Shown: positions 5,031 through 20,675 of the stretch, in pieces
Layout of the letters: each line of letters begins with the position of its first letter
Position numbering within the stretch: the first letter of the stretch is position 1
DNA from: a virus
Length of the DNA: 64,000 nt
Strand: one strand, 5' to 3'
Virus record (IMG/VR): IMGVR_UViG_3300047160_003189
Span: 1,411 to 65,410 of that record
The notes under the pieces: model-generated
The model's database searches: none
What the model saw: only the letters and a program-made list of their open reading frames with translations
What the model was told of the DNA's origin: nothing
Position numbers and translations under genes: made by a program

Positions 5031-5361
5031 GTGCCCTAAGATATACTGCTATCACTGCCCCGGTGCGCCGAAGCCATGGGTAGCAGTATATCACGGCACT
5101 CGCAAGAACAAGAACGGCAAAGTAACTTTCAGCCCGCTTCCCGTCAACTTCTACGGCAAGGAAGAGCTTGAGGTTACTGTCATGGCCGAGGAGTGGTGGA
5201 TCACCGAGGTCGCCAAGTATAAACGCCTCGACAAACGAAACCATGAGCTGGTCGAACGCCGGCGGCAATTCCTCGCCGACAAGGGGGAGGGAGAGCCAGT
5301 AGAGAACAACGAGTTCGCCGAGAAGGTGGCAGAGAAGGTAAAAGCCACCAAGAAGAAGTAA
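4981..5361 (+). CDS. Hypothetical protein
   Basis: 126-aa ORF in operon orientation, with CxxxYCxHC segment; start uncertain (4981 or 5002). Confidence 0.7.
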   Translation: MDSPYEEMTEMQKDEVKCPKIYCYHCPGAPKPWVAVYHGTRKNKNGKVTFSPLPVNFYGKEELEVTVMAEEWWITEVAKYKRLDKRNHELVERRRQFLADKGEGEPVENNEFAEKVAEKVKATKKK

Positions 5362-5416
5362 GCACACACTAGACTTGCGGTCAGCCCCCGCAAGTCTACT
5401 TTCAATGGAGAGAGTA

Positions 5417-6958
5417 ATGAGCAAGTGGCAGGGGGTTCCTCCGAAAGCTATACAAGACTTCCTCAACAGGAAGCTTGACGACTACCGAACAGCAAAAGAC
5501 ATCAGCGACGAGACGATCCAAGAACTATACGACCAACTGCCGATCACCCCGCCGATCTGGCGGATACTGAAGAGGGAACAGAAAATCTGCTTCCTCATTG
5601 GAGCCTGGACCCCGCGCTTCTACTTTGCGCTCGACCTGGGCATGGGCAAGACCCTGCTATCCATCGCACTCGGACGTTACTTCAATCATCTGGGCTATGC
5701 CGAGAAGATCATGGTATTAGTTCCTAGAGTAGCCAATAAGGAAGAGTGGGGGGCGTTGATCCGCAAGCATACTAAAGACGTTCCTTACTTAGTATTGAAA
5801 GGTTCGACCGCCGAGAAGTGGCGGCAGCTCGAAACTAGTAATGCGCTGTTCGTGATCGAGACTTACCCAGGCTTCCGCAAGATGATAAGCCGGCGCGTCA
5901 GTAACGGCAAGAAGACAGTAGAAGAGCTGGACCCTGGCCGGATGCGGCGCATGGCCGAGCTGATGCAGGGAATGATCTACGACGAGCTGACCCAGGCGAA
6001 GACCCAGAAGTCTCTCATCTTCAAGATCGCCTCTACTATGAGCAAGAGCTGCAAGTTTACTTTCGGTCTATCGGGGACGCCCTTCGGGCGCAACCCGCAT
6101 GACCTCTGGGCACAGATGTTTCTAGTAGACTTGGGCGAGACGTTGGGTAGGACGCTCAGCATCTTCCGAGCCGTGTTCTTCAATACTAATATTAACTACT
6201 GGGGTGGCTATGAGTACATCTTCAAGCGGACCCTTCGGCGCGAGCTGCACCGGACCTTGATGCACCGGATGATCCGCTTCAAGGCCGATGAGAGTACTCT
6301 ACCTCCGGTCAGCTTCCTCAAGCAACGCATACCATTGCCCAAGACCAACGAGCCTTTCTACAGAAGAGCCATCGCCGATCTGCGGGCGGCCAAAGGTAAT
6401 ATCAAGGAGATCGAGAACGCCTTCCTTAGACTACGGCAAATATCATCCGGCTTCGTCGGCTACAAGCACGATGCCGAGAAAGGCATCATCGATCTGCCAG
6501 ATAACCCGAAGCTTGAACTACTGATAACCATGCTGCAAAGCCTGGACGAGAAGGCAGTAGTCTTTCATGACTTCATCTACAGTGGAAAGCTGATAAAGGC
6601 CGAACTCGACAAGCTGGGTATCAAGTATTCTCACATCTACGGTTACACTAGGGACCATGAGAAAGAGCTGAGCCAGTTCGCCGATGACAAGGACTGTAAA
6701 GTAATGTTGCTCAACAGCTCGTCGGGAGCCTACGGCCTGGACCGGCTGAAGGCGGGGAAGTATGGGATATACTACGAGAGCCCGGTGCCGGCTGAGATAC
6801 GCTTCCAGTCCGAGCGGCGGGTGAGGCGTCAGCTCTCCAAGCATAAGAAAGTATTTCTCATCGATCTAGTAGTAACGGGCACCATGGATGATCGCATTCT
6901 ACAGTTCCATGCCGAGGGCAAAGACCTGTTCCAGAGTATAATTGAAGGGAAAATCTGA
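5417..6958 (+). CDS. SNF2/SF2 helicase
   Basis: LDLGMGKT (motif I), IYDELT (II), LSGTP (III), YGLDRL and QSERRVRR C-terminal helicase motifs. Confidence 0.88.
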   Translation: MSKWQGVPPKAIQDFLNRKLDDYRTAKDISDETIQELYDQLPITPPIWRILKREQKICFLIGAWTPRFYFALDLGMGKTLLSIALGRYFNHLGYAEKIMVLVPRVANKEEWGALIRKHTKDVPYLVLKGSTAEKWRQLETSNALFVIETYPGFRKMISRRVSNGKKTVEELDPGRMRRMAELMQGMIYDELTQAKTQKSLIFKIASTMSKSCKFTFGLSGTPFGRNPHDLWAQMFLVDLGETLGRTLSIFRAVFFNTNINYWGGYEYIFKRTLRRELHRTLMHRMIRFKADESTLPPVSFLKQRIPLPKTNEPFYRRAIADLRAAKGNIKEIENAFLRLRQISSGFVGYKHDAEKGIIDLPDNPKLELLITMLQSLDEKAVVFHDFIYSGKLIKAELDKLGIKYSHIYGYTRDHEKELSQFADDKDCKVMLLNSSSGAYGLDRLKAGKYGIYYESPVPAEIRFQSERRVRRQLSKHKKVFLIDLVVTGTMDDRILQFHAEGKDLFQSIIEGKI

Positions 6959-6984
6959 TTTGACTAGAAGACTTTAACGCCGAC

Positions 6985-7014
6985 TTGACAGCTTGGCTTG
7001 ACTTGAGATAAGAT
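6985..7014 (+). promoter_or_regulatory. Sigma70-like promoter
   Basis: TTGACA-N18-TAAGAT upstream of the GAGAGGGACT RBS. Confidence 0.55.
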
Positions 7015-7051
7015 GCACGTTCGCCCGCCATGGGCTCAGAGAGGGACTGAG

Positions 7052-7276
7052 ATGACTGACGAAAACGATACTACAACTGTACAAGGCATCGTGAGGCAAG
7101 ACATCGAGATGCTCGACGTTACTGGGGACTATAAGAGAAGAGGAGTAGAAGTAAATATTAGCGAGGACGCTAGAGTATTGTGGGTGAACGTAGCAGGCGT
7201 CTGCCGGCTGCGTGTTTGTCGGATCGAGGGGCCTATTACTATAAAAGCTCCCCGCTCCATCAAGATTACTAGATAG
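7052..7276 (+). CDS. Hypothetical protein
   Basis: RBS GAGAGGGA before ATG 7052; 74 aa. Confidence 0.7.
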   Translation: MTDENDTTTVQGIVRQDIEMLDVTGDYKRRGVEVNISEDARVLWVNVAGVCRLRVCRIEGPITIKAPRSIKITR

Positions 7277-7287
7277 GAGGGGTTGAG

Positions 7288-7470
7288 ATGAACCGCATGA
7301 GTAGACTTGAAGAGATCAAGCGGATGATTATCCGCTCACTACGCCGCGATGCTGAAAATTGCAGCAAGATACCGGGCGGCTATAGAATACATTCCGGCTG
7401 GATCAAGAGTATCGCCGATGACCTCGAACGCAACGAAGGCTACATCGAGATCATCGAGAGGAGGAAGTAA
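7288..7470 (+). CDS. Hypothetical protein
   Basis: RBS GGAGG, 60 aa, coupled to the next gene. Confidence 0.65.
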   Translation: MNRMSRLEEIKRMIIRSLRRDAENCSKIPGGYRIHSGWIKSIADDLERNEGYIEIIERRK

Positions 7471-7715
7471 TGAATAACGAGTTCTCGGTCTACCAGTTCT
7501 TCAAGGACGAAAGCTACGAGTGTGTTCGCAGCTTCGTTTCGGCCGAGGAAGCCGTGAAGGCGGCGCAACACTACTGCACAAGTGTGGGGGCGCGCATGGG
7601 TACTACCGTGCGCGTCATCATCACCGATGGCGGCGACTGCACCAACTTCGAGTGGAAGTATGGTGAGGGAGTTACTTTCCCCACCAGGGAAGAACTACAG
7701 AAGAAGGACCAATGA
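7470..7715 (+). CDS. Hypothetical protein
   Basis: 81 aa, TAATG coupling. Confidence 0.7.
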   Translation: MNNEFSVYQFFKDESYECVRSFVSAEEAVKAAQHYCTSVGARMGTTVRVIITDGGDCTNFEWKYGEGVTFPTREELQKKDQ

Positions 7716-7716
7716 C

Positions 7717-8616
7717 GTGCTTATCGATGATCTACTCAACAACCCCATGGTCGCCAAGACTTTCGGCGCTACTTGGGGGCAACTGCAATCTGATCTACAG
7801 AACTCGCAGAAGTTCGTCATCAGCAAGGAGATCGCCGAGGTCGCCGACGAGCTTTCTACTGACGAGAGCCAAGCCGAGAAAGTACTTCAGCATTGTCGGT
7901 TGCCGTTCCCGTTGGTCTGGGCGGAAGTAGTGCATCAAGATCGCCCCCACTACCTTAACGCCGAACGTCCTCCGGCAGCTCATGAGAAGGTGCCGGTGCG
8001 CGTCGGCGTTTTACTTCGTGGAATTGCAGACACCAAGGGGACGCAATTCCGAGCCAGCCTATTCTGGAACTACCCAGATGAGAAGATGGCTATTTGTAGT
8101 ATGATCGACATGCTTATCGATGTAACTAAAGGGGTGGACGGGAGCGTATTCATGCGCCCCTGTCCCTACTGGTACGATGCCGCCATGCTTATACTACAAG
8201 ACCATGGGCAGGACAGGCTCGCCAAGCTCATCGAGTGCTCGAAAGGCGACTGGCCCGGTGAGGTTCCCTTCTGGGCTTCTATACTTGCGCTGGTCAACTC
8301 GCGCAATGCGATAGAGTTGAAGATGGTAGATAATACTCTGTGGAACAGGAAGAGAGCCAAGCGAGGTCAGAAGCCGTTCGTTGACTACCGTGTCTGTCAC
8401 TTGCGCGTGCCGAAAGCCCTGCGCAATACTATAGGTGTTGTCGGCAACGAGCCGGGCGGCAAGAAGGCGTTTCACTACGTCAGCGGTCACTTCAAGGTCA
8501 GGAAGACCGGCATCTACTGGTGGCAGCCGCATTCGCGAGGCGACATCTCCTTGGGTGTAGTTCACCGCAAGCATACTATAGTGGAGGGAGCTGATGCCCC
8601 GCGTGAGGATCGGTAG
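7717..8616 (+). CDS. Conserved phage hypothetical protein
   Basis: Likely GTG start at 7717; C-terminal HYVSGHFKVRKTGIYWWQPHSRG basic His/Trp motif. Confidence 0.75.
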   Translation: MLIDDLLNNPMVAKTFGATWGQLQSDLQNSQKFVISKEIAEVADELSTDESQAEKVLQHCRLPFPLVWAEVVHQDRPHYLNAERPPAAHEKVPVRVGVLLRGIADTKGTQFRASLFWNYPDEKMAICSMIDMLIDVTKGVDGSVFMRPCPYWYDAAMLILQDHGQDRLAKLIECSKGDWPGEVPFWASILALVNSRNAIELKMVDNTLWNRKRAKRGQKPFVDYRVCHLRVPKALRNTIGVVGNEPGGKKAFHYVSGHFKVRKTGIYWWQPHSRGDISLGVVHRKHTIVEGADAPREDR

Positions 8617-8797
8617 AGTACGGATCAACAAGAGGGTCCGCATCAAACAACACTACTCTCCGTCTCAGTGGCAAGCTCTCTCGGAGAAGACCGATAGACT
8701 ACTCGAGGAAAGACTACAGGCATGGCGCGATGCTCACCCCTACCCAGAGCATCTAGGTATGAACCCGCACCAGCTCGTAAAGAAAGGAAAGAAGTAA
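8594..8797 (+). CDS. Small protein with triple RVRI N-terminus
   Basis: MPRVRIGRVRINKRVRIK; RBS GGAGGGAG; coupled to the next gene. Confidence 0.65.
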   Translation: MPRVRIGRVRINKRVRIKQHYSPSQWQALSEKTDRLLEERLQAWRDAHPYPEHLGMNPHQLVKKGKK

Positions 8798-9021
8798 TGT
8801 GCAAGACCACTGCCGTCGATCTCAAGGGACTAGTCTTCGGCACCCTGACGGTGAAGCGAAGACACTACCCGCATCAGGACGAAGTAAAGCATTGCCGGCT
8901 GGCCCGCTGGGTCTGCGAGTGCAGTGTTTGCGGCCGCAAGAGAGTACTCTTCAGTCAAGCCATCCGAGGCAAGGACTTCTCTACTTGCCGCTGCGCTAAT
9001 GCAAGGATTTTCGTGTCATGA
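8797..9021 (+). CDS. Small Cys-containing protein resembling the N-terminal domain of phage HNH/AP2 proteins
   Basis: DLKGLVFGTLTV...WVCECSVCG; no nuclease domain follows. Confidence 0.55.
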   Translation: MCKTTAVDLKGLVFGTLTVKRRHYPHQDEVKHCRLARWVCECSVCGRKRVLFSQAIRGKDFSTCRCANARIFVS

Positions 9022-9971
9022 CTACGTTCGACTGGAAGACCTTCCTCCGCGACCGAGGTATAGAGTATATCGAAAGCGGCAGGACTGCCACGCGAGGTAA
9101 TATCGCCATCAACTGCCCGATGTGCGGTAATGACCACAGTTTCTACTTGTCTATCTCGACCGAAGGCAAGGGCTGGCACTGTTGGCGTAATCCGGCGCAC
9201 AAAGGCTCAACTGAATACTTGGTGGCAGCTCTTACTCACAGTAGCATCGAGCAAGCCAAGCTGGTAGTTGACAGCGGTGCGGCACTGCCTACCGACTTTC
9301 TATTTACTGTGCATTCATTACTCAGTGAGGACGAGCCGGCGAACATAGAAGTAAAGCCGCGAGAGATGCCTACGGCGTTCCGCTCCTTTACTGACAAGAA
9401 CAGCTTCGTCTACCCATACTTAATCTACTTAAGCCAGCGAGGTATAGACACATTCGATGCCAATCAATTCGGATTGAAGTATTGTGTAGTTGGAGACTAC
9501 GCGGGGCGCATCATCTTCCCGGTCTACTATAAAGGGGAGCTAATGTGCTGGACGGGACGTAGTATATCCCCGAAAACCGCCCTTCGATATAAGACCAGCT
9601 CAACAGAGGACGGGCCGCCGATCACAGACTACTTGCTTTGGCATGACCAACTCCTTGAAGGTGGGCGCGATTTGGTCCTCTGCGAAGGTCCATTTGACAG
9701 TCTGAAAGTCAATGTGCTAGGTTGGCGTTTCGGGGTCAGATCGACTTGCTTCACTACTTCTTTCCCTTCTGACGAGCAAGTCAATAAACTACAGTCTATC
9801 ATCCCTCTCTTCGAGAGAACCATAGTAATCCTTGACGAGGGGATGACACATAATACTCTCCGGCTCAAAGCCAAGCTGGCTACGCACCGGATCAAAGGCG
9901 TCAACCTGATTACTCGCAAAGACCCTGGCGAGCTACAGTCTAGGCGTGAACTATTCGAGTTACTGGGTTAG
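9018..9971 (+). CDS. DNA primase (zinc finger plus TOPRIM)
   Basis: CPMCG...WHCW zinc-binding domain, RIIFPV, LCEGPFD TOPRIM acidic motif. Confidence 0.88.
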   Translation: MTTFDWKTFLRDRGIEYIESGRTATRGNIAINCPMCGNDHSFYLSISTEGKGWHCWRNPAHKGSTEYLVAALTHSSIEQAKLVVDSGAALPTDFLFTVHSLLSEDEPANIEVKPREMPTAFRSFTDKNSFVYPYLIYLSQRGIDTFDANQFGLKYCVVGDYAGRIIFPVYYKGELMCWTGRSISPKTALRYKTSSTEDGPPITDYLLWHDQLLEGGRDLVLCEGPFDSLKVNVLGWRFGVRSTCFTTSFPSDEQVNKLQSIIPLFERTIVILDEGMTHNTLRLKAKLATHRIKGVNLITRKDPGELQSRRELFELLG

Positions 9972-10046
9972 TCCCGGTTAGTAGTCGAGCCATGTTGCCC
10001 ACTCGACTACTTCTATTGGAGGGCAACTTGTTAGGAGAATACGACT

Positions 10047-10730
10047 ATGGCACGTAAGGCAACACCAGCGCCGGCCCCGGTTGTCGAGGAGGAGGTCACC
10101 CTCGAAGAATACTTGCTGCAAGAGACTGGGCAACCTCAGAAGAGCCGGCGCGAGAGCCAGCAGGATTACTTGGTTCGTATTGCCCAAGCCTGCGATCAAC
10201 TGGACGACAACTGGTACAACGCACAAGAAGACGACGCCAAGCAATGGTGCGATGCGGCGGCCCAGGCAGTCAAAGACGGAACTACTGTTCCCGACTTCGA
10301 CGGCACGGTAGAGGAAGAGGAAGCCGAGCCCGAGCCCGCTCCTACTCGCGGTAGAGGTAGGGGTCAGCCGGTGCAACCGGCTCCCGCACCTACTCGCGGA
10401 AGGGCGGCACCGACACCGGAGCCTACTCGCGGGCGCGGTGCTCGTACAGTAGAAGCGGCACCGGAGCCGGCTACTCGCGGACGTGGAGGTAGGGCAGCTC
10501 CCGCCCCGGCTCCTACGCCCGAGCCTGACCATCCAGTAATCAGTACTAACGAGCGGATCATGGAGTTGATTGTCGAAGACCCGCAAATTACTGGCGAAGA
10601 CATCATGGCCAAGCTCGAAGAGGAGCAACATGAGCTTTCCGCATTTGCGGTGTATGCCCTCCGCGCGGAGATATTGAGGTTCCTTAAAGTACTTCAAGAG
10701 TACGGTATGCTGACCGAGAATATGGTGTAA
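10047..10730 (+). CDS. Hypothetical protein with TRGR repeats, possibly nucleic-acid binding
   Basis: Acidic N-terminus; four P(A)TRGR units in a Pro/Ala-rich linker; helical C-terminus. Confidence 0.75.
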   Translation: MARKATPAPAPVVEEEVTLEEYLLQETGQPQKSRRESQQDYLVRIAQACDQLDDNWYNAQEDDAKQWCDAAAQAVKDGTTVPDFDGTVEEEEAEPEPAPTRGRGRGQPVQPAPAPTRGRAAPTPEPTRGRGARTVEAAPEPATRGRGGRAAPAPAPTPEPDHPVISTNERIMELIVEDPQITGEDIMAKLEEEQHELSAFAVYALRAEILRFLKVLQEYGMLTENMV

Positions 10731-10752
10731 GTGTAGCCTAACGGTCAGCGTT

Positions 10753-10797
10753 GCCCCTGGTGCCGGTCCCCTCTCCCGCACCGGGGGCTTCTCTTTT
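10753..10797 (+). terminator. Intrinsic terminator
   Basis: 11-bp GC stem GCCCCTGGTGC/GCACCGGGGGC followed by TTCTCTTTT. Confidence 0.55.
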
Positions 10798-10814
10798 CTC
10801 ATGGGGATAATACT

Positions 10815-11576
10815 ATGTTCCGCAAAGAACAGCTCAGCCACGACGTTACTATATATCTCGCCGACTGTGAGCTAGTCCTGGGGCTTCATGCGAACAAGGT
10901 CGATGCTGTACTAACCGATCCGCCCTACGGTATAGCCGAACAGTTCAAGACCGCGCCGACCTTCAACAAGAAGCGTATGATACGCAACGGCATCGATCCC
11001 AGCGAAGTAATAGACTTGCGCAATTCCTGGGACAGCAAGCCCGACCTTCGCCTTATGTATAAGCTGGTAAAGATGGCCGATGAGGTCATCATCTGGGGCG
11101 GCAACTACTTTGCTCTACCTCCCTCGCGTTGCTGGTTCGTCTGGAACAAGCCCAGACGTAACTTCTCGCTTGGTGATGCAGAGCTGGCCTGGACTAACCT
11201 CAACTCAGTAATCAGGACGTTCGACGGGGACTGGCGCGGCAAGGACGAGCTGATCTTCGGCGAGCATCCTACCCAGAAGCCGGTCGATCTGATGCGCTGG
11301 TGTATCAGTAGAATAGACGGCCACATTATACTGGACCCGTTCATGGGAGCCGGCACTACTGGCGTTGCCGCCGTCAGCATGGGGAGAGGCTTCGTCGGCA
11401 TCGAGAAGGAGCCTAAGTACTTTGAGATCGCCCTGCGCCGGATCGAGAACGCCGTCACCACTCCCCGGTTTATACTAGAGAAGCCTAAGCAACGTAGGCC
11501 GGCGAAGCAGCCGACCTTCTTCCCGAAGTCTACTATAGCAACCAAACGAGTAAGGATAAGTGAGGGACAACGATGA
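10815..11576 (+). CDS. DNA methyltransferase, N6-adenine/N4-cytosine, beta class
   Basis: TDPPYG catalytic motif precedes HPTQKP and [13 protein letters not shown]-binding motif. Confidence 0.92.
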
Positions 11577-17109: not shown

Positions 17110-17757
17110 ATGACCATGGCTACGACCAAAGCCCGCGTTTCGCGGAAGACACCCGCCCCGACTGCCAAGACGAAGCAGGCGACTACGGCGGCCCCGAAGA
17201 CGAGGACGAAAGTCCAAGTCAAGCCTACCGCCACCGAGGCGGCCCCCAAGCGGGGAGCTACTCGGCAGGCGGCACCCGCCACCCCCGCCAAGGGAAGGGT
17301 TCGCACTACTGCCCCGGTCGCCCAAGAGCGCGAGAAGGCAGTGAGGCGCTCCCATATCGAAGCCGCTGGCGATTACCTCACCGACGCTACCCCCAAGGGC
17401 AAGATCGGCGACTTGATCTCGGCGCTTCACAAGAAGGCGATGACGCTCGATGACATCCAAGACTTTTTGGATGTCGCCCGCAACGCCGCTTCTGCTTCCC
17501 TCTGGCACGTCAAGTGGAAGTACGGTTTTCAGGATATCGTCAAGGGCAAGAACCGCGACGGTAAAACTACTTGGAAGCTGGCCAGCTTGACGCGGGGGAT
17601 ACAGGGGACCAACGGAGCGAAGCCCGCCAAGGGACGCGCCAAGGTCCAGCCGGCTACGCCCGCTCCCGCTGCTACTCGCCAGCGGACGAAGGCGGCACCG
17701 GCAACCCCCGCCCCGGTTACGCCGGCCAAGCGGGTTCGCCAGCGGGTGTCGGCATAA
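17110..17757 (+). CDS. Histone-H1-like basic protein with central winged-helix-like domain
   Basis: Ala/Lys/Thr/Pro-rich arms flank a DUF3489-like segment (KIGDLISALHKKAMTLDDIQDFL...WHVKWKYGF); RBS GAGAGGGAC. Confidence 0.7.
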   Translation: MTMATTKARVSRKTPAPTAKTKQATTAAPKTRTKVQVKPTATEAAPKRGATRQAAPATPAKGRVRTTAPVAQEREKAVRRSHIEAAGDYLTDATPKGKIGDLISALHKKAMTLDDIQDFLDVARNAASASLWHVKWKYGFQDIVKGKNRDGKTTWKLASLTRGIQGTNGAKPAKGRAKVQPATPAPAATRQRTKAAPATPAPVTPAKRVRQRVSA

Positions 17758-17768
17758 CTTACCAAATC

Positions 17769-17796
17769 AGGGAGAGCTTCGGCTCTCCCTTTTTTT
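17769..17796 (+). terminator. Intrinsic terminator
   Basis: AGGGAGAGC-TTCG-GCTCTCCCT followed by a T run. Confidence 0.9.
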
Positions 17797-17847
17797 GTCT
17801 CTGAGAAAACTGATTGCATTTTGCAACTGGTTGCAAAATACTTTCAT

Positions 17848-17876
17848 TTGACCCTATTCCCTAGACGTGCTATAAA
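17848..17876 (+). promoter_or_regulatory. Sigma70-like early promoter
   Basis: TTGACC-N17-TATAAA about 55 nt upstream of hammerhead 1. Confidence 0.7.
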
Positions 17877-17932
17877 GCGGAGCGGTCAACCGACTGCGCG
17901 TTTTTTGACATCGTGAGCCTCCCTCTTTACAA

Positions 17933-17994
17933 GACCGAAACCGGCCGCGCGGAGCGCCGCTGGTCTGGCCGTAGCGCGGCCACTGACGAAGGTC
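17933..17994 (+). ncRNA. Type II hammerhead ribozyme 1
   Basis: GACC-GAAA-CCGG...CTGG-TC-TGGCCG(TAGCG)CGGCCA-CTGACGA-A-GGTC; all three stems pair; GUC cleavage after 17965. Confidence 0.8.
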
Positions 17995-18017
17995 AGTCAA
18001 CAGAGAGGGACTACAAA

Positions 18018-18275
18018 ATGAGTAAGGCACTCAAGAAGCAAAGCCGCACTAATCGTTGGATGGAAGCTGCCTCTAAGGCAGTATCCGCCCTCGAAGAGCT
18101 TGTTGAACTTCAGGAAGAATACTCCGAATGGTTCGACAACATGAATGAGAACTTGCAGAACGGCGCGACTGGCGAGAAGCTGCAAGCCCTCATCGACCTC
18201 GACCTGTCCTCTGCGCTCGATACTGCGCAAGAGGCGGAAGGAGCCGAGTTGCCTCTCGGCTTCGGACGCGACTGA
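18018..18275 (+). CDS. Hypothetical acidic helical early protein
   Basis: RBS GAGAGGGACTAC downstream of hammerhead 1; 85 aa. Confidence 0.8.
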   Translation: MSKALKKQSRTNRWMEAASKAVSALEELVELQEEYSEWFDNMNENLQNGATGEKLQALIDLDLSSALDTAQEAEGAELPLGFGRD

Positions 18276-18286
18276 TCGGGGAGTAA

Positions 18287-18348
18287 GGCCGAAAGGGGCG
18301 GGGAGTAATCCCCGTCTCTCTGACCGTGATGCGGTCACTGACGAGGCC
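18287..18348 (+). ncRNA. Type II hammerhead ribozyme 2
   Basis: GGCC-GAAA-GGGGCGGGGA(GTAA)TCCCCGTCTC-TC-TGACCG(TGATG)CGGTCA-CTGACGA-GGCC; canonical core; CUC cleavage after 18320. Confidence 0.9.
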
Positions 18349-18373
18349 AGTTGTTCTCAAGAGAGGGACTACC

Positions 18374-18709
18374 ATGGACTATCCTCATTACTTGGACGAT
18401 AATGATGAGATCGTCACGTTACCTTACACTTGGGAGATTTGCTCCCATTGTAGGGGACACGGCAAGTCGAGCGCCTATCTCGGAGCCTTCACGCAAAGCG
18501 AGATGGATGAGATGGGACCGGACTTCCGAGAGGACTACATGTCGGGCGGCTACGACAAGCCGTGCGATGTGTGCGACGGCACCGGGAAGGTGCCGGTGAT
18601 CGATGAGGCGCGCTGCAAGCCTGATGACCTCGCACGCTACCGCAAGGATTGCGAAGACGAGGAAGAGTATCAGGCTATGTGTGCGGCCGAGCGGCGCATG
18701 GGGTGTTGA
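18374..18709 (+). CDS. Hypothetical protein with CxxCxGxG zinc-finger-like motifs
   Basis: CSHCRGHG and CDVCDGTG; RBS GAGAGGGACTAC. Confidence 0.8.
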   Translation: MDYPHYLDDNDEIVTLPYTWEICSHCRGHGKSSAYLGAFTQSEMDEMGPDFREDYMSGGYDKPCDVCDGTGKVPVIDEARCKPDDLARYRKDCEDEEEYQAMCAAERRMGC

Positions 18710-18710
18710 G

Positions 18711-18953
18711 ATGATCTTCAAGAGCATCGAAGACTACTCCCGCTGCAAGGTCTGCGGATCGAAGCTGCCCGCTCCTATCCGCGCCTTCGCTGTTCGCAAA
18801 CTACAACCGTCTTGTTGCGGTCATGCCTGTTACCGGCGCGACATCATCAAGCGTTTCGCCTGTTGCGAGGATGCCGAGGTCATGGAGTGCGTTTGCATGT
18901 ATGCTTTCAAGTGCAAGACGCATGGTACTATGCATATCGGGACACATGACTAG
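18711..18953 (+). CDS. Cys-rich small protein
   Basis: CKVC, CCGHAC, CCEDA, CVC, CKTHG. Confidence 0.7.
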   Translation: MIFKSIEDYSRCKVCGSKLPAPIRAFAVRKLQPSCCGHACYRRDIIKRFACCEDAEVMECVCMYAFKCKTHGTMHIGTHD

Positions 18954-18955
18954 GA

Positions 18956-19159
18956 GTGACTATGCAGACACGCTTTCCCAAAGACTACTACATCGTTGAT
19001 GGCGATGTAGTCCGCACCATAGAGGCGTTGATGAACCGCCTCTACAACGATCTCACCGGGCCGATGCGCGGTGATGAGATGCGCGACTGGGCGAACACCC
19101 TGTACGCGAAACTTCGAAAGGTCGATGAGTACGACCCCAAGGCCGAAACCGGGGAGTGA
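18956..19159 (+). CDS. Hypothetical protein
   Basis: 67 aa, RBS AGGAG; its 3' end overlaps hammerhead 3. Confidence 0.7.
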   Translation: MTMQTRFPKDYYIVDGDVVRTIEALMNRLYNDLTGPMRGDEMRDWANTLYAKLRKVDEYDPKAETGE

Positions 19160-19197
19160 TCCCCGGTCTACTCGTCAGGCGAGTACTGAAGATGGCC
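19141..19197 (+). ncRNA. Type II hammerhead ribozyme 3
   Basis: GGCC-GAAA-CCGGGGA(GTGA)TCCCCGG-TC-TACTCG(TCAGG)CGAGTA-CTGAAGA-T-GGCC; GUC cleavage after 19168. Confidence 0.85.
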
Positions 19198-19223
19198 AGA
19201 CTGCACATCAGAGAGGGACTACT

Positions 19224-19796
19224 ATGATCTATGAAATCGCGAAGGCCGATGCGGTCGAGCGGGCGCAGAAGACACAGAAGAATGTGGACATCTGCTACTA
19301 CCGTGGCGTCTCACCCCATAACTACTTCATCAAGGACGTCGACCAGCCGCTGCCAGAGGACGCTATCCACGTTTCTACTGCGCACTGCAACGGCATCGTC
19401 GTCAGCGAAGTCGGCGACGGATCGGACGACGAGGCGGTGATGGAGTACGTAGAGGAGGAGGAGCCGAAGCCGGATTACTACTCGGTCGCCATCCACTTCG
19501 TTGATCGTTGCTACGGGGGACCGGAGGAAGGCGGCTGGTGGTATAATGCCGGGCATCCTATCACCGAAGTCCTCAAGGGCTACGACAACATGACACCGGA
19601 GGACAGCTTACCGAAATGCTTCCTCACGGAGGACGAGGCGCAAACCTACTGCGATCTACTCAACAACAAGCTGGCGGCTGGCCCGAACAAGGGGCGGCGC
19701 TCGATCTACTCCATGGCCAGCGAAGGCCGCTACCAAGCAATGGTGCAAGCCGGCTGGCCGCACGCATGGCCAAACCCGGCACCGCACTACGAATAA
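19224..19796 (+). CDS. Hypothetical early protein
   Basis: RBS GAGAGGGACTAC; contains DRCYGGPEEGGWWY and SEGRY motifs; may be a two-module fusion. Confidence 0.8.
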   Translation: MIYEIAKADAVERAQKTQKNVDICYYRGVSPHNYFIKDVDQPLPEDAIHVSTAHCNGIVVSEVGDGSDDEAVMEYVEEEEPKPDYYSVAIHFVDRCYGGPEEGGWWYNAGHPITEVLKGYDNMTPEDSLPKCFLTEDEAQTYCDLLNNKLAAGPNKGRRSIYSMASEGRYQAMVQAGWPHAWPNPAPHYE

Positions 19797-19800
19797 GAAA

Positions 19801-20013
19801 GTGAGTACTATGAAAAGCACCCTCAAGGTCAGACACCCCGAAGACTTTCGGGACTGGCTGGTACTGCATCTGCGCGAGCGGGCTAAGACCCCGCGAGAAA
19901 ACTACAACAGCAAGACGCTGCGCCTCAAGGATCGCTATCGGTATCTCGGTGAGGCGATGGCGCTCGATGAGATGGCGCGGATGCTCGAAAACCTCGAAAT
20001 CATAACCGACTAA
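19801..20013 (+). CDS. Hypothetical protein
   Basis: 70 aa; last gene before the terminator. Confidence 0.65.
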   Translation: MSTMKSTLKVRHPEDFRDWLVLHLRERAKTPRENYNSKTLRLKDRYRYLGEAMALDEMARMLENLEIITD

Positions 20014-20020
20014 CTACTGC

Positions 20021-20049
20021 GGGCGAGGGTTCACCCCCTCGCCCTTTTT
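20021..20049 (+). terminator. Intrinsic terminator ending the + arm
   Basis: GGGCGAGGG/CCCTCGCCC stem followed by TTTTT. Confidence 0.88.
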
Positions 20050-20156
20050 CGTAGCTGGTGAATGTAATGTTATAACGTCTCAATCTCAGATCCGGCTCAA
20101 ACCGGCTAGGAGGTTAGGTTGTCGAGCTGGAAACCCCCTAGGGCACAGAGGGAGAG

Positions 20157-20245
20157 GCGCGAGGATCGATTTGGAGGGGGCTAGAACGGCCGTTCACGAT
20201 TTCCGGCTAGGGTGATGCCACCCCACCCCCAAACGGGCGTCCTAG
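20157..20245 (+). repeat. Dispersed ~90-bp element, copy A (inverted relative to copy B)
   Basis: 20223-20245 is the exact reverse complement of 42626-42648; blocks CGAGGATCGATTT and CCGGCTAGGGT are also shared. Confidence 0.8.
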
Positions 20246-20646
20246 ACCGATAGGAAGCCCGGCAAATGGCATTTGCCGGGGAGGGGGACACCCCAGACGG
20301 CGATTTTCGAGCGGGAGGGGGGATCGGGGCGGCTCAGAGGACGCCTGTCAGCGGGCTCCCTAGGGGCTCCTAGAGGCATCCGAGCGGTAACCAGATTAAG
20401 GGGTTAGGGGGGTGAGCCCCAGCCAGGGGCGAGAGGAGCCGGGAAGGCGACACCCAAAGCACCTTCCCGCTCTTCGATCCCCCCTCACCTGTCAGGGGGC
20501 GGCGCGAGGCATTAGGACGCTGGAAAGGTAGCCTCGTCGTCTAGCGCGGTAGCACCGACGCAACCCGGTGTCAAAGCGGGAGGTCAAACGCCTACCCGGC
20601 TCGAATGGTTCCAGCCCTAGTTACTTAGCCGGCTAAGTATATGAGT

Positions 20647-20675
20647 AAAAGAAGCCCCGGCGCGAAGCCAGGGCT
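20647..20675 (-). terminator. Intrinsic terminator ending the - arm
   Basis: On the minus strand AGCCCTGGC-TTCGC-GCCGGGGCT followed by TCTTTT. Confidence 0.85.

Follow-up and report, generated by a model that had tools for sequence, protein, structure and literature searches.

The DNA described here is a 64,000-nucleotide (nt) stretch, referred to as the window, of IMG/VR virus record IMGVR_UViG_3300047160_003189 (positions 1,411 to 65,410), and the elements of interest are three type II hammerhead ribozymes, HH1, HH2, and HH3, which are interspersed among six small genes on its + strand (Table 1). The source record comprises 79,685 bp and is estimated to be ~97% complete. Its + strand codes for replication genes (DNA polymerase, clamp loader), and its - strand for tail-type genes, including a tail protein; the hammerhead unit is a small + strand block sited between the two. 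The unit contains six small open reading frames (ORFs) of unknown function, genes 1-6, of which genes 2-4 (18374 to 19159) are closely spaced or coupled. HH1 lies ahead of gene 1, HH2 begins 11 nt past the gene 1 stop, and HH3 overlaps the end of gene 4: its 5' half encodes the final residues of that gene, and the stop codon falls in the loop of stem III.

The boundaries of the unit are set by two intrinsic terminators and a candidate promoter. The latter is of the sigma-70 type, matches 10 of 12 consensus positions, and has a predicted start near 17883. An earlier, sequence-only reading of this stretch had proposed one transcript from a promoter at 17848. The promoter-like site and the bounding terminators make a single transcription unit of ~2.1 kb (~17883 to 20044, genes 1-6) plausible, but a consensus promoter scan did not call the promoter, because the -10 hexamer ends in A and the scan demands a final T. 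The putative "early" label of the unit has two bases only: the promoter-like site, and the presence of small ORFs with no known function.

Table 1. Positions of the hammerheads, genes, and signals of the unit, numbered from the first letter of the window.
Feature	Position	Strand	Details
Upstream intrinsic terminator	17769-17790		Precedes the unit; found by terminator scan
Candidate sigma-70-type promoter	17848-17876	+	-35 TTGACC 17848-17853, 17-nt spacer, -10 TATAAA 17871-17876; read from the sequence
Anti-Shine-Dalgarno (anti-SD) tract UCCCUCUUU	17920-17928	+	In leader; can pair with the gene 1 Shine-Dalgarno sequence (SD) at 18002-18010, extending stem II of HH1
HH1, type II	17933-17994	+	In 5' leader; C17 = 17965; extra A 17990
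HH1 layout		+	GACC, GAA, stem III 17940-17964, C17 = 17965, stem I 17966-17982, CUGACGA 17983-17989, A 17990, GGUC 17991-17994
Ribosome-binding site (RBS) block GAGAGGGACTAC, copy 1	18003-18014	+	ATG of gene 1 at 18018
Gene 1	18018-18275	+	85 aa; phrog_4068, unknown function
HH2, type II	18287-18348	+	C17 = 18320; CUGACGA 18338-18344; canonical core without insertion
RBS block GAGAGGGACTAC, copy 2	18361-18372	+	ATG of gene 2 at 18374
Gene 2	18374-18709	+	111 aa
Gene 3	18711-18953	+	
Gene 4	18962-19159	+	Stop codon 19157-19159
HH3, type II	19141-19197	+	C17 = 19168; CUGAAGA 19186-19192; extra U 19193
RBS block GAGAGGGACTAC, copy 3	19211-19222	+	ATG of gene 5 at 19224
Gene 5	19224-19796	+	190 aa
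Gene 6	about 19810-20013	+	
Closing intrinsic terminator	20021-20044	+	9-bp GC-rich stem followed by TTTTT

Sequence and structure of the three hammerheads

A descriptor scan specifying the core, A15.1-U16.1, H17, and the three helices was applied to both strands of the window, and returned exactly three matches, all on the + strand, as against 0 in 50 shuffles, which rules out a chance origin of the three motifs. The strand order is the same in each copy: stem II 3' strand, GAA, stem III hairpin, C17, stem I hairpin, CUGANGA, and stem II 5' strand. Stems I and III each end in a loop while stem II is open, which defines the type II permutation. All three copies have GAA, A15.1-U16.1, C17, G10.1-C11.1, and U1.1-A2.1, and in all three stem I consists of 6 bp with a 5-nt loop (U...G). 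HH1 and HH3 differ from HH2 in carrying one additional nucleotide between A9 and G10.1 (A17990 and U19193, respectively).

Within the alignment of HH1-HH3, 98.3% of cells are paired, and both sides have changed in 8 of the 21 pairs. Folded as isolated elements, each has the hammerhead three-way junction as its minimum free energy (MFE) structure (HH1, -29.9; HH2, -34.2; HH3, -28.1 kcal/mol), and stem III accounts for -15.2, -19.5, and -15.3 kcal/mol in the window copies. The sequence and the descriptor scan bear out what the sequence-only reading had put forward for these positions, namely the type II core, helices, and order, stems that differ in sequence with pairing kept, the dimensions of stem I, and cuts after 17965, 18320, and 19168, each of which is a C17. 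The extra nucleotide of HH1 and HH3 and the gene 4 stop inside HH3 are details additional to it. On these grounds HH1-HH3 are genuine type II hammerhead motifs, for which self-cleavage is predicted.

Distribution and family traits of the subtype

A covariance model was built from the three window copies; HH1 scores 84.7 bits with this model, a value that is high by construction. No fourth hammerhead was found with it elsewhere in the window or in the remaining genome. A blastn search of 17700-19400 against 50,697 phage records gave zero matches, and the hammerhead is absent from the 12.9-kb locus of the sole viral relative identified through the clamp-loader protein (L002, 39% identity). Four other soil metagenome runs yielded contigs identical to the window over 17850-19300; the same phage is therefore present in several soil samples, at low depth, and population variation adds no covariation to that described above.

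Relatives were recovered with a degenerate DNA pattern for the subtype that left the stems unconstrained. The pattern matched 30 IMG/VR contigs, all 30 of which were confirmed by the covariance model, with 20 further hits in the same loci. The family thus amounts to 50 hits, the 3 in the window and 47 in the 30 IMG/VR contigs, of which 44 are distinct; ten contigs bear arrays of 2-4 copies. In the alignment of the 44 distinct rows, paired cells make up 98.2%, and compensatory change is seen at 19 of the 21 pairs, whereas none of 500 shuffles was as good and slid controls were paired at only 32-47%. When the same pattern was run against 596 Gb of bacterial and archaeal genomes it matched 34 loci, of which the model confirmed 3 (4 hits): one in a Halieaceae metagenome-assembled genome (MAG), one in Asticcacaulis biprosthecium (2 hits), and one in a Spartobacteria MAG. 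The other matched loci, unconfirmed by the model, were set aside as chance matches. The confirmation of 30 of 30 viral loci as against 3 of 34 bacterial and archaeal ones indicates that the subtype is strongly enriched in viral contigs, and that the model separates true elements from pattern noise.

Members of the family have in common an open stem II of 4 bp (GRCC/GGYC), which is flanked by an unpaired A and by A(G); a stem I of 6 bp, closed by a U...G loop; and a stem III that is long and rich in GC (median 8 bp, -12.5 kcal/mol). Their placement is also shared. Among the 44 distinct members, a median of 2 nt separates the end of the upstream ORF from stem II, and a median of 24 nt separates the element from an SD with a start codon beyond it; 27 of the 44 show both features, as against 110 of 1200 positions drawn at random from these loci. 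The ribozyme is therefore an intercistronic element between a stop codon and the next RBS.

Copies in one contig resemble each other more than copies in different contigs do, both in the stems (identity 0.73 within vs. 0.48 between) and in the 35-nt leader (0.51 vs. 0.35), from which it follows that ribozyme, leader, and RBS behave like one unit undergoing duplication or homogenization within a genome. In three viral loci, L006 (2911-4014), L017 (7490-8401), and L004 (8425-9240), a near-identical leader and RBS come after each hammerhead of the contig; in L006 all four copies are followed by ...CTCGAACCAGGAGCAGACTGACATG or a close variant. These loci suggest that ribozyme, leader, and RBS are copied as one cassette.

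Fourteen of the related viral loci were also scanned with Rfam, and Hammerhead_II hits over threshold occurred in only one, L018 (IMGVR_UViG_3300034980_000253). This locus has a dense, mixed array of self-cleaving ribozymes on the - strand, ~5.5 kb long (~5300-10820), with four hits to Rfam Hammerhead_II, four to Twister-P5, and additional hammerheads that only the covariance model from the window picks up.

Coupling of the hammerheads to a common RBS

Each hammerhead in the window is followed by the same 12-mer, GAGAGGGACTAC, which starts 8, 12, and 13 nt after stem II of HH1, HH2, and HH3, respectively, and is itself followed by an ATG. The exact block occurs three times in the 79.7-kb genome, each time behind a ribozyme. 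Two copies with one mismatch are located ahead of other start codons, at 2896 and 17110, and GAGAGGGACTAC is therefore the strongest form of the usual RBS of this phage. The leaders from cut to ATG measure 52, 53, and 55 nt. The common RBS and nearby start codon, as well as leaders of about 55 nt, had been part of the sequence-only reading, and both hold.

Comparison with known hammerheads

Natural type II hammerheads, as well as gene-flanking hammerhead clusters in prophages, were described by Perreault et al. (2011, PLoS Comput Biol, PMC3088659), who proposed that such clusters cut long transcripts down to mRNAs of single-gene or operon length. In that study, triple arrays from Agrobacterium tumefaciens, Azorhizobium caulinodans, and Clostridium scindens cleaved during in vitro transcription, and a pseudoknot between loop I and the 3' tail was present in the majority of type II hammerheads, though it was not obligatory. 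The window resembles these arrays in having same-orientation hammerheads in the intergenic gaps of a phage unit with small genes of unknown function, for which the same role is proposed; three + strand hammerheads within 1.3 kb bound gene 1 and genes 2-4, as in clustered phage arrays. It differs in that the genome is that of a free, uncultivated phage from soil metagenomes rather than a prophage, that type II is the form of all three copies, which belong to a subtype lacking the usual loop I-tail pseudoknot, and that one and the same 12-nt RBS block, absent elsewhere in the genome, is coupled to each of them.

In Desulfovibrio vulgaris, three type II hammerheads near phage-like genes were found to cleave both in vivo and in vitro (Olzog et al., 2021, cyPhyRNA-seq, PMC8782182). 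Two of that set lie close together, and the phage-gene context is shared with the window; the organism and sequences are different, and cleavage, which has been demonstrated in D. vulgaris, is here a prediction from DNA. As compared with the Rfam family Hammerhead_II (RF02276, clan CL00010), the window copies share the core, the permutation with stem II open, and the unpaired A before and AG after stem II. They differ from it in scoring below threshold, in the 4-bp stem II, in having no conserved pseudoknot that could be found, and in the 1-nt insertion after A9 of HH1 and HH3.

An insertion at this core position has a precedent. The (+) hammerhead of chrysanthemum chlorotic mottle viroid (CChMVd) tolerates one more nucleotide, A or U, between A9 and G10.1 (De la Pena and Flores, 2001, via PMC3705267); an extra A causes a moderate decrease in rate and an extra U a 3-4-fold increase (PMC3705267). 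HH1 has the A and HH3 the U, but the viroid ribozyme is of type III whereas the scaffold here is type II.

The arrangement also recalls a synthetic device. RiboJ is an engineered type III ribozyme, made from that of the satellite RNA of tobacco ringspot virus (sTRSV) with an added hairpin. It and related synthetic ribozyme insulators were reportedly set before the RBS in work by Lou et al. in 2012. Both in RiboJ and in the window a hammerhead stands directly upstream of the RBS, upstream context is removed (in the window, by predicted cleavage), and a defined 5'-OH leader starts with a hairpin. The window elements differ in being natural and type II, and would leave a hairpin on the upstream product as well; their insulating function is one that we infer.

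A proposed model of transcript processing

The interpretation that best accounts for the locus, to which a probability of about 0.7 is assigned, is that three functional type II hammerheads of a phage-borne subfamily cut the transcript of the unit into standardized, insulated translation units. The motifs, their conservation and covariation, their placement between stop codons and RBSs, and the boundaries of the unit are observed. Cleavage in vivo, release of the products, and effects on stability and translation would follow from these if the ribozymes act as predicted.

The unit would be transcribed from ~17883 to the terminator at 20044, and each ribozyme would fold and cut after its own C17. 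The predicted products are a ~83-nt leader, a 355-nt mRNA (17966-18320) carrying gene 1, an 848-nt mRNA (18321-19168) carrying genes 2-4, and a ~880-nt mRNA (19169 to ~20050) carrying genes 5-6. Each upstream product would have at its 3' end the hairpin of stem III (-15 to -19.5 kcal/mol) and then C17 with a 2',3'-cyclic phosphate, while each downstream product would begin with a 5'-OH, the stem I hairpin flush with that end, and the same strong RBS ~30 nt later. Because the two products are joined only by the 4-bp stem II, they should part quickly. It also follows from the strand order that type II is the only permutation that would leave a terminal hairpin on both products. Ends bearing hairpins would be poor substrates for end-dependent RNases, and each RBS would be preceded by an identical, context-free leader, as in the synthetic ribozyme insulators. 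The outcome would be three translation units, the stability and translation of which are mutually independent.

A broader proposal would add that ribozyme, short leader, and RBS form a standard cassette copied within phage genomes, a natural counterpart of the synthetic insulators with an RBS block that is genome-unique here; that the anti-SD tract of HH1 makes translation of the first gene dependent on cleavage; and that type II is favored as the sole permutation with hairpins at both ends. Taken as a whole this proposal is tentative, and is put forward as a speculation that is more apt to fail than to hold.

Evidence against the model and alternative explanations

Several observations weigh against processing of the transcript into insulated units. 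Rfam returned zero matches at gathering thresholds over the whole window, and with permissive settings only HH1 matched Hammerhead_II, at 25.5 bits (E 0.018), where the gathering score is 37; HH2 and HH3 were unreported at E <= 10. Of the hammerhead models, whose use the sequence-only reading had suggested as a check, the covariance model made here finds all three copies, and RF02276 finds HH1 only, below threshold. Given the outcome of the core and covariation tests, the low score is taken as a limit of the seed model and not of the motif.

Other such points concern how the ribozymes would perform. For a loop I-3' tail pseudoknot of at least 4 bp, Watson-Crick matches in the window copies reach 3 bp at most, the same value in all three, and across the family they average 3.11 against 2.83 +/- 0.115 for permuted pairs, which is marginal at best; with no pseudoknot evident, fast cleavage at cellular Mg2+ is not assured. 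The near-invariant unpaired A before and A(G) after stem II are candidates for a tertiary contact. In the MFE structure of a longer HH1 precursor, a local hairpin (ACUGAC/GUCAGU) competes with stem II, and ribosomes translating to the gene 4 stop inside HH3 would unfold that ribozyme. The runs that hold the phage are of soil DNA only, with no RNA run among them. Finally, in Bacillus the 5'-OH that the glmS ribozyme generates directs RNase J1 to degrade the RNA. By analogy, in a host with RNase J1 a 5'-OH end in this phage could lead to decay and not to stabilization.

The alternative that follows from this last point accepts the hammerheads as real, but holds that cleavage chiefly lowers or differentiates expression, either since 5'-OH and cyclic-phosphate ends mark the RNA for decay or since the genes are uncoupled and the distal ones less expressed, in the manner of a timing or dosage device. 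The genes would indeed be distributed unequally over the three pieces, and the ribozymes are unlike one another in features expected to affect rate, with an extra A in HH1, none in HH2, and an extra U in HH3; in the CChMVd hammerhead, an extra A slows cleavage and an extra U speeds it (PMC3705267). Moreover, "different stabilities or translation efficiencies" are listed as a possibility in a 2019 review (PMC6765202). The hairpins expected at the new ends, stem I flush at the 5' end and one of -15 to -19.5 kcal/mol at the 3' end, argue in the opposite direction, for such ends usually protect RNA, and this device is considered unlikely.

Alternatively, HH1 might be a translational switch dependent on cleavage, in which the anti-SD tract masks the gene 1 RBS until cleavage and loss of the ~83-nt leader unmask it. 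A 9-bp helix between anti-SD and SD is present in the MFE fold of the HH1 precursor, and the probability that the gene 1 SD is unpaired rises from 0.04 in the precursor to 0.68 in the 3' product, an effect specific to HH1. However, 9 + 4 bp would go on tethering the cleaved leader in trans, HH2 and HH3 are without such an effect, and the flank duplex of HH1, at -18.1 kcal/mol, gets no further than the 5.7% tail when flank pairs are permuted. Masking of the SD by pairing of 5' and 3' flanks was rejected as a family-wide trait, as it is not enriched (-11.5 vs. -11.2 +/- 0.45 kcal/mol). The modeled folds are thus no more than suggestive of SD masking at HH1, and a switch as the main function of HH1 is decidedly unlikely.

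The elements could also be slow or inactive relics, serving as structured intergenic hairpins or as boundaries of a repeated cassette derived from duplication. The failure to find a tertiary contact, the Rfam scores below threshold, and the competing hairpin in HH1 are all in keeping with slow or lost activity, and the greater likeness of stems and leaders within a contig fits duplication. Against this, the core nucleotides are all intact in the three copies while the stems have diverged with compensation, which is the signature of selection on a catalytic fold, and relatives of the same architecture are conserved across 30 contigs. These data leave relics with little probability.

That paired cleavages free the 355-nt and 848-nt segments for circularization or splicing by a host RtcB-type ligase is hardly credible: 5'-OH and 2',3'-cyclic phosphate ends are RtcB substrates, and the possibility was raised by Perreault et al. 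(PMC3088659), but those authors sought such products and found none, no RtcB or RNA ligase domain was found among the phage-encoded proteins, and no sequence feature draws the segment ends together.

Other features of the unit and its surroundings

Directly upstream of the candidate -35 hexamer is a perfect palindrome, TTGCAAC-TG-GTTGCAA (17821-17836), inside a longer inverted repeat (17816-17841). It has no second exact copy in the window, and looks like an operator for a dimeric regulator of the hammerhead unit. A small hairpin (GCGGTC/GACTGC) with GCGTTTTTTG behind it (17882-17907) coincides with the predicted start of the transcript, where it might serve as a 5'-terminal hairpin or, ahead of HH1, as a weak attenuator. 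The product of gene 2 contains Cys-rich repeats that match the DnaJ CXXCXGXG zinc-finger domain weakly, below threshold (E 0.0015, 19.2 bits vs. a cut-off of 32.7).

Beyond the closing terminator, ~600 nt (20055-20650) are flanked by convergent terminators and have no ORF longer than 45 aa. This region is G-rich, has recurring CTAG-containing motifs, and yields a folding z-score of ~-3 on both strands. It also contains long-range inverted repeats, such as those pairing 20315-20326 with 20475-20486 (12/12) and 20436-20449 with 20589-20602. Searches of 20055-20650 gave no Rfam match and no tRNA. The region might encode a structured RNA, or function as an origin or in packaging.

Significance

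The idea that clustered hammerheads process phage transcripts, on which the functional proposal of the sequence-only reading is built, is already published (Perreault et al., 2011, PMC3088659). The present locus is a clean further example of the layout described for prophages in 2011, and adds an example rather than a principle. Its added value lies in a subtype that goes largely unreported at Rfam thresholds, in the exclusive coupling of ribozyme and RBS block, and in the compactness of the unit. The subtype is phage-borne, having been confirmed in 30 viral contigs as against 3 of 34 pattern-matched bacterial and archaeal loci.

The role of genome-encoded bacterial and phage hammerheads is still debated; the 2019 review repeats the processing idea and calls the purpose of such hammerheads unresolved (PMC6765202). 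For this debate the locus is a compact test case, as it combines, in a promoter-to-terminator unit of 2.1 kb, three ribozymes with an identical RBS after each, natural variation at one core position (none, extra A, or extra U), and one copy that may mask its own RBS.

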